A stretch of DNA of 64,000 nt, from NCBI GenBank assembly GCA_016938695.1, contig JAFGUC010000024.1:434001-498000 (forward strand), read 5' to 3'. Origin of the DNA: Candidatus Woesearchaeota archaeon. GTDB lineage: Archaea > Nanobdellota > Nanobdellia > Woesearchaeales > JAFGUC01. Shown in pieces: positions 33,001-36,000 of this stretch. A program made the position numbers. Numbering within the stretch: position 1 is the stretch's first letter; each line of letters begins with the position of its first letter.

Positions 33001-36000
33001 TTGATATTGGTGCTTATGAATACGCATTAGATGGGATTGCACCAAGTATCAGTAATTTACTAAATATTTCAACAAATGAATCCGTTACAATTACTTTCAC
33101 AACAAACGAAGCCGCAAATGTAAGTATCAATTCTGGAACAACAATAATATTAGGAACAAAGAATTCCAATTCATCGTTTGCAACAACAATCAATCTTACA
33201 ATTAACGGATTAACAAATAATACATCATATTATTATAATATTACAGTTTGTGATGTAGTCAATAATTGTAATACGATAGGACCATATAGTTTTACAACAC
33301 TCCAAACTCCTGATACTATTAATCCTGTATGGTCTGGAAATACTACTTATTTAGTATCGCCAACATACCAGCAAAGTCAAAACCATCAGTTTAATATAAC
33401 ATGGTCAGATAATCATTTAGATTCAGTTATTTTTGAAACTAATTTTTCAGGAATTCCACAAAATGTTTCTTCAAGTGGAAATTTAGGAAATGAGTATTAT
33501 TATAATATTGCAAATCTTGCTGCAGGAACATATTATTGGAAATCTTACGCAAACGATACTTCGAGTAACGAAAATGAGACAAGTCTTTTTATGTATACAG
33601 TCTCAAAAGCATCAACGGCAATTAATTTATTATTAAACAGTACAGATGGTAATATTGCAATTGAGCAAAACTCTTTACTAAATATGACTGTTAATTCCGC
33701 TATTGCTGGTACATTAAGGTTATATCAAAATGGTACATTACTTAACACTTCAACAAGCAACTTTACAAGAATAATTAATGAAACTGAATTAGGTTATTTT
33801 AATATAACTGCAATGTATGTTGAAAATACAAATTATACAAGTTCAATAGAAACACATTTCTTAACGGTGCATAATCAGTATATTCTTGAATTATCAGATT
33901 CATTAAATAAATCTTATGCAGATATAAACGAGAGTATAACATTCTTTGCGAATTATAGTAATTTTAGTGTTCATATTTCTGCATCAACATGTAACATCAC
34001 ATTTAGTGACGGTAATTGGTCGTTAATGACTGAGAATACAAGTAATTATAATTTCACAAGAAATTTCTCAAACAACGGAACTTATCTATACAATGTAACT
34101 TGTAACAAAACAGGATATCCAACTCTAACTAAAAATAGTTCAGTTCAAATTGGTTGTATAGAATCTTGGTCCTGTGGTTCTTGGTCAACTTGTACTGGAA
34201 CACAGTCTAGAACTTGTACTGATGCAAATAGCTGTGGAACAACATTAAATCAACCAGTTTTAATTCAGAGTTGTACAGTAACAACTTCAAGTAGTGGAGG
34301 GGGAGGAGGAAGTTCAGGTGGTGGATCAGCAGGAGGAGGTTCATCAATACCTGAAAGTGCAAACAGTATTTCAAAAACATGGAGCATGGTTTCACAAGGT
34401 GATGTTCTTGACTGGAATATAACAGGTCATGAGATAGCTAGAGTAGTATCAACACCACTCACAACAGGATTTTTATCTAAGATTGTAATAACTTTAGATA
34501 ATGAATCTGAATTACCTGCGTTTAATTTGTCAGGAATTAATGCCGACTTTGAGCATTCAACAGCTATAGTTAAAGTTCCAAAAGATAGTTATGACTATTT
34601 TGAAATGCAATATGAAGCAGAACCAACAGAAAATATTACCAAAGTATATTCTGATGAATTATATGATTATTATGAAACTGAATTAAGTGGTGAAGGTTTC
34701 TATAAAGTATATGGTAAAAATAATATAATCTACAATAAGGTTGAAGAACAAAATATTACTGGAGAAGTAATTAATGAGTCTATGGTAAATGAAACAATTG
34801 ATGAGATAATAACAGAACCTACTTCAAAGTCAAATCCATTATTTTTAGTAACTGTATTAGTAACATTACTATTCGGCGGAATTGCATCAGTCTTAAAATT
34901 AAATCCCCAAATCTTGAGCAAATTACACAAAATTCCAAAGAAAAATATTGTTCAAAGTGAATACAAATCAGAAAAAATAACAAAGAATAAATCTAAAGTT
35001 AGAAGAACAACCAAAAAATAATTCTATTTATTATACTTTAATCCAGTACTTTTAACAACCAGATAATCTCGTCCATTAACCGTATCTTTATCAGTTCGAG
35101 ATATCTTTACAAAACCAAAAAATTCTAGCTCTTCACAATTATTGATAATCGATTGATAATTAGTATTAACTTTGCGTTGAAGTTTGTTAATACTAATTTC
35201 ATTTTCTTGTTTTAACAAAGTTAGAATCTCTTTTTTTATCTCTAAAGGCTTACGCTTCATATACTACTGTAAGCGTAAAATTTAAATATAATCTGAACTC
35301 ACAATATTGTATTGTCTTTTGGTGACTTAGAGATGCTTGATTGGTTCTCATGTGAATTTAAGTCATCAAGAAGACATTCTATTTTTCAAATGCACCATAA
35401 GGACAATTATTAACACAAATCATACATTCTACGCATTTTGAAGAATCAATAATTGGTGCTAAGTAGCCTTCTTGTGCAATTGCTCCCTTAGGACAAGCTC
35501 TAACCATAGGACATCTGTGATTTTCAGGACATAATTTATTTATTACATTAATTGCCATATACAAAAATCAAAAATATCTATTTATATTTATTTTCTTTAG
35601 AACAATAATTTTTATAAATAACTTAGTTACCAATTAAATGTTACTCAAGGAAAGCAAGGTGAAAATCCTTCACTGTCCCGCAACCGTAAAGTCGGAATGC
35701 TTGAATAATTAAATTGGTCGAGGTATGCCGCATTATTTCTAAAATAGCGACAAAATAAAAATGTATGGACTTACACATGTATACTATGGGTTTGGTAAAG
35801 GAAAAACTACAACAGCATTAGGTGTAGCAATTAGGGCAGCAGGAGCAGGATTAAACGTTGAATTTGTTCAATTTCTAAAAGATGGAACAAGTAGTGAATT
35901 TAAGTCATTAACTCATGTTCCGAATATAAAATATTATAATCCTAGTTTTATAGGTTTTGTAAACCCTGAATATATAACGCCCAATCAATTGGAACAATCT

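Follow-up and report, generated by a model that had tools for sequence, protein, structure and literature searches.

Does an archaeon of the Woesearchaeales control a btuR/cobA-family gene with a cobalamin riboswitch, and how would such a switch be read out behind an archaeal promoter? The question is raised by a locus within a window of 64,000 nucleotides (contig JAFGUC010000024.1 of assembly GCA_016938695.1, positions 434,001 to 498,000), in which a first-pass annotation had placed a class II cobalamin riboswitch behind a TATA-like box and directly before cobA/btuR. Our cmscan of the window gave a match to RF01689 (AdoCbl-II) at 35632-35710 on the + strand, with a score of 57.0 bits (cut-off 36.5, E 2.5e-11) over the full length of the model (positions 1-81 of 81), and the whole-genome search gave a second copy at C7:214637-214716 on the - strand with 38.4 bits, so that the riboswitch claim was borne out at both sites. 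The box (35611-35618) and the PF02572 open reading frame (35761-36276) were also found where they had been placed. The focal copy has the best Rfam score among all matches in the order. A covariance-model search of the genome with the class I model RF00174 gave nothing over its cut-off, and in the Rfam alignment the focal copy has neither a P2 arm nor a large P6 extension, which assigns it to class II and not to class I. It lies on the same strand as the btuR-family gene, 50 nt before the ATG, and its position in a 5' leader is predicted from the sequence. The features of the locus are the following:

35611..35618, + strand: TATA-like box, read from the sequence, starting 36 nt before the conserved AAGG
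35639..35643, + strand: predicted transcription start, most likely G35640, from the TATA spacing of the genome
35632..35710, + strand: class II cobalamin aptamer (Rfam RF01689), 57.0 bits, its first 8 nt lying upstream of the predicted start
35640-35643 with 35706-35709, + strand: extension of P3 across a 1x1 mismatch, read from the sequence
35645-35649 with 35700-35704, + strand: closing helix P3, from pair counts on a 27-row alignment
35656-35670, + strand: P4, inside the closing helix
35674-35682, + strand: P5/L5, inside the closing helix
35677..35680, + strand: L5 kissing bases CCCG, pairing with 35719-35723 in 27/27 rows, the first pair covarying
35684-35695, + strand: P6, inside the closing helix
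35716..35729, + strand: P13 hairpin, arms 35716-35718 and 35727-35729, with the kissing partner CG(A)GG (35719-35723) in its loop
35720..35749, + strand: region of the putative competing helix with the pyrimidine tract (35733-35740), diverged in the focal copy, where several folds are possible
35761..36276, + strand: btuR/cobA-family ATP:corrinoid adenosyltransferase gene, 171 aa, PF02572 149.8 bits

The host of the locus is archaeal by several markers. The switch lies on a 513-kb contig (C70) that carries an archaeal SSU rRNA (1437.8 bits), and S6e and aIF2-gamma were found over their cut-offs within the window. The genome, of 1.5 Mb, has a completeness of 99% and a contamination of 5.42%; its small size at this completeness is an indirect sign of a DPANN archaeon. 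The window also holds a 3915-aa open reading frame at 23274-35021 (+), whose product seems to be a repeat-bearing surface protein, secreted and anchored in the membrane, and a lipoate cluster at 37126-40268 (-) with a lipoate ligase-like gene, a lipoyl synthase, a flavin disulfide reductase-like gene and a GcvH-like gene.

Further copies were collected by scanning GTDB contigs with a pattern of the aptamer core. The scan, covering 51 of 64 parts, returned at least 118 stretches, most of them in records of Gastranaerophilales or other bacteria, plus archaeal ones; among the matches listed, 28 distinct archaeal copies remained after identical ones were merged, and 27 of these were aligned. The copy L013 was counted among the 28 and was left out of the alignment, the platform folding and the opening-cost tests, as no P13 could be placed in it. 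Two other matches were set aside: L073 is a chance match inside a gene, and L074, filed as Methanobacteriaceae, gives no evidence for methanogens, since its leader resembles that of a bacterial record and its class-mates, with genomes of 1.6-6.7 Mb and 33 of 61 matching, look bacterial; it was counted with the bacteria. An RNA contig from three runs of one study was also rejected as evidence of expression, because it matches 32 nt of the core with 2 differences, is unlike the focal sequence thereafter and probably comes from another organism's switch.

In the order, RF01689 matched 12 of 151 genomes, eight of them over the cut-off and our own genome included; the earlier survey had covered 101 genomes (seven matches, four over the cut-off). 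Our own covariance model added no order genome to those found with Rfam's, and in a class-wide search it matched 2 of 151 genomes, the second with a weak copy of 33 bits. This divergent aptamer lies at L347:1506-1629 (-) in genome G214, from another order of the class, with no long open reading frame directly behind it. In a separate phylum four genomes matched, all four before btuR; as titles of records proved an unreliable guide, the phylum assignments rest on a search of its 42 genomes.

The promoter region of the focal copy was then compared with the rest of the genome and with the other copies. TATA-like 8-mers peak 30 nt before the ATG in this genome (63 of 876 open reading frames at -30, the bulk between -32 and -28), and a peak this sharp suggests that many mRNAs are leaderless. 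Given this spacing and the box at 35611, the transcript is predicted to start near G35640. Shine-Dalgarno-like 5-mers precede 128 of the 876 open reading frames. Among the matches listed, 23 of the 28 archaeal copies have a TATA-like box 30-40 nt ahead of the conserved AAGG, compared with 1 to 4 of 28 in each of six control windows, and a TATA-like match stands at the same distance in 23 of 91 bacterial copies; a -35-like hexamer was present in 34 of 91 bacterial copies and in none of the 28 archaeal ones. A sigma-70 scan gave nothing exceeding shuffles, and a terminator scan of 35450-36400 found no terminator-like site and nothing exceeding shuffles. Diverging from the switch is a gene for a 59-aa 4Fe-4S ferredoxin-like protein (35379-35558, - strand) with a TATA-like box of its own about 30 nt upstream.

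The results of the pair counts support the aptamer fold. In the 27-row alignment, 92.7% of 508 helix cells were paired, with 43 two-sided changes, a level that was reached in 0 of 500 shuffles and that fell to 33-42% in slid controls, although relatedness among the rows inflates such counts. All four pairs of P4 show two-sided changes, while no pair of P5 or P6 varies on both sides, so that no covariation comes from these two helices. Only L011 has an extended P6; in the other 26 of the 27 rows this helix is capped by a plain loop. The 37 invariant core columns previously reported for eight copies became 28 invariant columns in 27 rows, an invariance that is partly circular because 14 of the 27 rows were found with the core pattern. 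This pattern did not contain the TATA box, the L13/kissing loop or the platform. In the kissing interaction, CCCG of L5 can form four pairs with CG(N)GG in all 27 rows, with a two-sided change at one pair in two rows, and the first pair was C-G in 26, U-A in 43, G-C in 10 and other or unplaced in 39 of 118 archaeal and bacterial aptamers. All four pairs of the P13 arm are possible in the focal copy and in 22 of the 27 copies.

The predicted start bears on the likely ligand. Rfam draws a 7-nt J1/3 loop closed by an outer helix that lies upstream of the predicted start at 35640. A transcript starting there drops this outer helix; 35640-35649 can then pair with 35700-35709 across one mismatch, and J1/3 would be reduced to this 1x1 mismatch. 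J1/3 is described as a selectivity determinant in cobalamin riboswitches in the available part of PMC6158498, and an excerpt of PMC7367189 describes Cbl-IIb as adenosylcobalamin-binding, with a J1/3 that is short and either mismatched or paired, and with a P6 hairpin that is short as well. The resemblance of the short J1/3 to that of Cbl-IIb suggests that the ligand may be adenosylcobalamin, a suggestion only, because the likeness depends on the predicted start.

Downstream of the aptamer, a strand ending in a UUUCUC-like tract can capture the purines of the P13 loop together with the P13 3' arm, and this competing helix can accommodate inserted hairpins of about 40 nt. Downstream pairing of the loop bases exceeds the shuffled mean in 25 of 27 copies and, copy by copy, goes beyond shuffles in only 7 of 27; in the focal copy the pairing probability of these bases is 0.95, and 5 of 60 shuffles were as high. 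In 26 of 27 copies, forming P13 costs 0-9.9 kcal/mol relative to the free fold, an ordering of the two states that is expected if a ligand must tip the balance (available part of PMC10327014). When the bound state was modelled, the pyrimidine tract became easier to open in 22 of 26 copies, while the start region opened more readily in 18 of the 26 and less readily in 6, with constraints that bias the result towards 'easier'. The opening cost of the focal tract barely shifts (0.4 versus 0.8 kcal/mol), and the whole focal leader folds no better than shuffles (z 0.86 for the MFE), which is uninformative. The tract has just about three U in a row, and in the free folds the U-rich bases are paired within the stem and leave no free tail.

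Among the matches listed, 17 of the 28 archaeal copies and none of the 93 bacterial ones fit a pattern written for this platform, a contrast that is partly built in, as the pattern was written from archaeal copies; a looser version was dropped, its matches being mostly unrelated bacterial records. By these comparisons, the archaeal copies in two phyla share a read-out part that is unlike the bacterial one. Plain occlusion of a Shine-Dalgarno sequence, as in the bacterial relatives, is unsupported by the opening-cost models and by the archaeal copies, and the sequence ahead of the btuR ATG has no Shine-Dalgarno-like motif. The bound state is instead predicted to set a short pyrimidine tract free without masking the start codon.

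The protein encoded behind the focal switch belongs to the CobA/BtuR family: the open reading frame scored 149.8 bits against a PF02572 cut-off of 25.7 and contains the P-loop motif, and the protein aligned to the solved CobA over residues 3-171 (E 3e-19). With 107.9 bits against a cut-off of 185 and 102.1 against one of 167.75, it stays under the thresholds of both NCBIfam cobA models, which weakens the claim of a standard CobA, not that of the fold family. In a tree of 43 rows the six BtuR proteins behind switches group together (support 98/92), and in a quicker tree of 56 rows they make up six of a group of seven, whose seventh member overlaps its upstream gene and has no leader. This switch-bearing clade spans two phyla, and switch and btuR seem, from these trees, to have travelled together. 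A scan with the single BtuR protein returned only seven distant bacterial relatives. Two switch-led BtuR proteins (L149:1929-2960 and L076:1683-2732) have two tandem BtuR domains. A 280-aa open reading frame at 36310-37152 (+) follows btuR after 33 nt and may be co-transcribed with it; it has no Pfam or NCBIfam match, and we take it to be NurA-like.

The first genes downstream of the 28 archaeal copies among the matches listed were btuR in 6, an ECF S component in 8, an acidic open reading frame followed by an ECF S component in 4, an acidic open reading frame with no ECF S component seen in 8, and others in 2; thus 10 of the 28 copies lead genes without a shown link to B12. With the larger number of copies, the combination of class II aptamer, archaeal promoter position and B12-related targets holds more strongly than before. 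The acidic open reading frames found first behind many switches are long (770-1280 aa), of low complexity and without Pfam match (L255:191-3145, L200:609-2966, L254:310-4149, L193, L195 and L071). Those of L255 and L200 share a C-terminal stretch that by eye is DUF4430-like, and that of L255 heads an ECF-S/DUF4430 operon. At L006/L257 (G050:C3) two switches stand 780 nt apart, one before a 175-aa acidic open reading frame and the other before an ECF S component. The second switch of our genome leads a 93-aa membrane protein without family assignment (L002:1168-1446, - strand), a candidate B12-related protein whose neighbours in the atlas are clusters of Woesearchaeota/Nanobdellota. In three bacterial relatives the switches lead open reading frames which we take, by eye, to be metE, nrdD and a btuB-like receptor. 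Genes of these three kinds are typical repressed targets.

The ECF genes of the relatives were compared with known transporters, as the first-pass annotation had called them cobalamin-type. The predicted fold is that of an ECF S component (Z 16.7, rmsd 2.5, 148 aligned), and the lead of such genes by a switch was found again, directly in eight copies and behind an acidic open reading frame in four. The protein itself does not show the cobalamin type: its nearest structural matches are folate and thiamin S components (Z 16.7-15.3), with BtuM (Z 11.7) and CbrT (Z 8.1) further down; Foldseek gave no match for the S component at E <= 0.001. A B12 label for this protein comes from its DUF4430 neighbours and the switch, not from the protein itself. 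What usually comes after an ECF-S gene is a DUF4430 protein or a surface-anchored one; within the stretches examined, none of the neighbours could be recognised as an ECF ATPase. DUF6580 matched 9 of 11 switch-bearing relatives versus 27 of 151 order genomes overall (a tally that includes the unpublished genome G131), and a switch lies within 1.5 kb of 7 of 26 ECF-S loci. The other btuR loci had no switch (0 of 30 and 0 of 34); BtuR proteins, which fall into several divergent clades, are present in 63 of the 151 genomes of the order (unpublished G111 and G131 included), and B12-binding domains in 119 of 151, most of them without a switch (unpublished G111, G120 and G131 included).

In our own genome, B12-binding domains were found over the cut-off in five open reading frames, each with CxxxCxxC, as many as the B12-binding radical SAM genes reported earlier, and there are nine such domains in all. 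The reported absence of cobalamin synthesis genes stood for CobS, the sole family that we tested, with 0 matches in the genome. Nine B12-binding domains and no CobS are consistent with scavenging, to judge from the gene content. The genome gave no match to DUF4430 and none to DUF6580, for which the controls gave no match either. Neither class I/II ribonucleotide reductase nor methylmalonyl-CoA mutase was found; with no match to the three adenosylcobalamin-enzyme families tested, no adenosylcobalamin user was found in the genome.

Taken together, these results place a sequence of the class II cobalamin riboswitch kind in an archaeon, where its promoter and platform are of an archaeal type and its function is predicted; it is a variant of a known riboswitch class, and what differs from its bacterial relatives is the expression platform. 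The RNA is probably a working B12 sensor. That the focal leader acts as a B12-sensing OFF switch for the btuR-family gene has, in our estimate, an even chance of being right, and we hold the OFF sign across the copies to be equally balanced; the OFF reading was chosen because the targets are uptake genes and the enzyme that makes the likely ligand. The archaeal RNA polymerase would start near 35640 and make a compact aptamer with the closing helix at its 5' end and no large J1/3 loop. When no ligand is present, the downstream helix would capture the L13 bases and the P13 3' arm. Cobalamin, perhaps adenosylcobalamin, would stabilise the kissing loop and P13, as we infer because the available part of PMC10327014 describes this stabilisation by bound cobalamin in tested switches, and the downstream helix would open. 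The pyrimidine tract set free, which lies 14-33 nt ahead of the start codon (at 50 nt in one copy), would then reduce expression, most likely by serving cleavage and termination of the aCPSF1/FttA type as an entry site; in some copies the output may run through a new hairpin near the start.

We put forward this termination route only tentatively. In the parts available to us, PMC11616081 gives U-rich RNA as the preference of FttA, and PMC11616081 and PMC13675443 describe FttA/aCPSF1 as binding and cleaving U-rich nascent RNA. The genome has an aCPSF1-like gene with 60% identity to a query typed by Pfam. There are two full-length aCPSF1-like genes (G000:C20:295938-297860 and C80:2799-4685), of which the second, on a 4.9-kb contig, may be contamination. 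The wider proposal, that DPANN archaea rebuilt a bacterial cobalamin aptamer into a TATA-driven, core-trimmed form whose conserved platform exposes a tract to aCPSF1/FttA, and which would thus be a natural riboswitch of factor-dependent termination, is likewise speculative and somewhat doubtful. Among the observations against the explanation as a whole are the patchy distribution of the switch, with its 12 of 151 order genomes, the diverged focal platform, the short U run of the tract, the ten copies before genes with no shown link to B12, the lack of an adenosylcobalamin user among the families tested and the TATA-like matches in bacterial copies.

The same helices could be wired the other way. 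In an ON switch, the competing hairpin would block expression without B12, either like a terminator or by crowding the ribosome's landing zone, and B12 would open it and induce the genes of uptake and adenosylation. The topology is that of the activating cobT switch of A. halodurans, in which P13 and the downstream hairpin are mutually exclusive (PMC10327014, in part). The start region, easier to open when bound in 18 of 26 models, also fits an ON switch, and induction of btuR by its substrate would be sensible. Against this, B12 uptake genes are normally repressed by B12, the constraints bias the start-region result towards 'easier', the free folds keep the U-rich bases paired in a stem with no free tail, and 35450-36400 holds no terminator-like site. 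We regard the ON sign as rather unlikely, though as a serious rival. Less likely still is that the aptamer, recently imported or a decaying relic, may fold and no longer controls btuR here. The patchy distribution, the diverged focal platform, the 93-aa protein without family behind the second copy and the lack of an adenosylcobalamin user among the families tested would all suit a relic; however, the focal copy tops the Rfam scores in the order with its kissing pairs and P13 intact, its TATA spacing is common to 22 other copies, and two phyla retain the switch ahead of one and the same BtuR clade.

The RNA might also bind a corrinoid and act through RNA stability or protection of its 5' end, or sense a related ligand, and not work by termination or initiation at all. 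The predicted 5' end at the base of the closing helix and the fact that neither state clearly hides a start signal agree with this, but the helices 3' of the aptamer are conserved and exclude each other, which speaks for a downstream output, and we give action through stability, 5'-end protection or a related ligand a low probability. It is highly improbable that the locus is a piece of bacterial DNA which an error of assembly or binning put into an archaeal genome: the contamination of the genome and the closest aptamer cores, which among the matches listed are mostly in bacterial records, would allow it, whereas the 513-kb contig carries archaeal rRNA and archaeal marker genes, the platform type occurs in archaeal copies only (again among the matches listed) and the same arrangement was found again in independent genomes.

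The archaeal copies share with RF01689 (env8 Cbl-IIa, and Cbl-IIb as described in part of PMC7367189) the four-way junction P3-P6, the short P6 and the lack of a P2 arm, and with class II in general the L5-L13 kissing loop with its bulge and a place in the 5' leader of B12-related genes. Unlike known class II switches, they have an archaeal host, a TATA-like promoter and an L13/P13 region without a Shine-Dalgarno sequence at working distance, in place of which stand the putative competing helix and the pyrimidine tract. Unlike Cbl-IIa, their predicted transcript starts at the closing helix and J1/3 would be reduced to a mismatch, as the same excerpt of PMC7367189 describes for Cbl-IIb. Compact class II switches in records of Gastranaerophilales/Melainabacteria and Margulisbacteria have the core motif and the covarying kissing pair in common with the archaeal copies, but these bacterial switches often have -35-like boxes, and in many of them the 3' arm of P13 holds, shortly ahead of the ATG, a ribosome-binding motif rich in purines. 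In the activating corrinoid riboswitch of Alkalihalobacillus halodurans cobT, P13 and the downstream hairpin share a strand and exclude each other, as in the archaeal copies; its hairpin is a bacterial intrinsic terminator, whereas the archaeal hairpin is not followed by a free U-run (available part of PMC10327014).

Archaeal riboswitches described so far likewise place a bacterial-type aptamer in an archaeal leader; the sources, as available in part, name fluoride, tested in T. kodakarensis, and TPP, FMN, guanidine and lysine as well as c-di-AMP, all predicted. The T. kodakarensis fluoride switch is presumed to be translational, and it was, as of 2021, the only natural archaeal riboswitch determined experimentally (excerpt of PMC8241225). 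Cobalamin is absent from the archaeal lists in the available parts of PMC8241225 and PMC8281238, and an excerpt of 10.1101/538918 gives a cobalamin switch only in Leptospirillum. The parts available of 10.64898/2026.10.21.760802, PMC9943018, PMC12452182, PMC3849165, PMC5780412 and PMC9600662 contain nothing on an archaeal cobalamin riboswitch. Our literature search, within such partial texts, found no report of one; supplements of KEGG-wide or GTDB-wide surveys, Chavez et al. 2020 (PMC7950411) and the work of Gupta and Swati (2016/2019) could list archaeal hits.

It is likely, as far as sequence comparison can tell, that these archaea control B12 genes with an RNA switch. If this is true, the riboswitches of the Archaea would gain a cofactor-sensing class, with a B12 switch retained in two DPANN phyla behind promoters of the archaeal kind, and archaea with small genomes would be seen to ration a cofactor that they probably cannot make. 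As a short RNA that can be synthesised, the conserved platform lends itself to the question of how riboswitches act on archaeal transcription or translation, and it could give a B12-controlled genetic tool for archaea.
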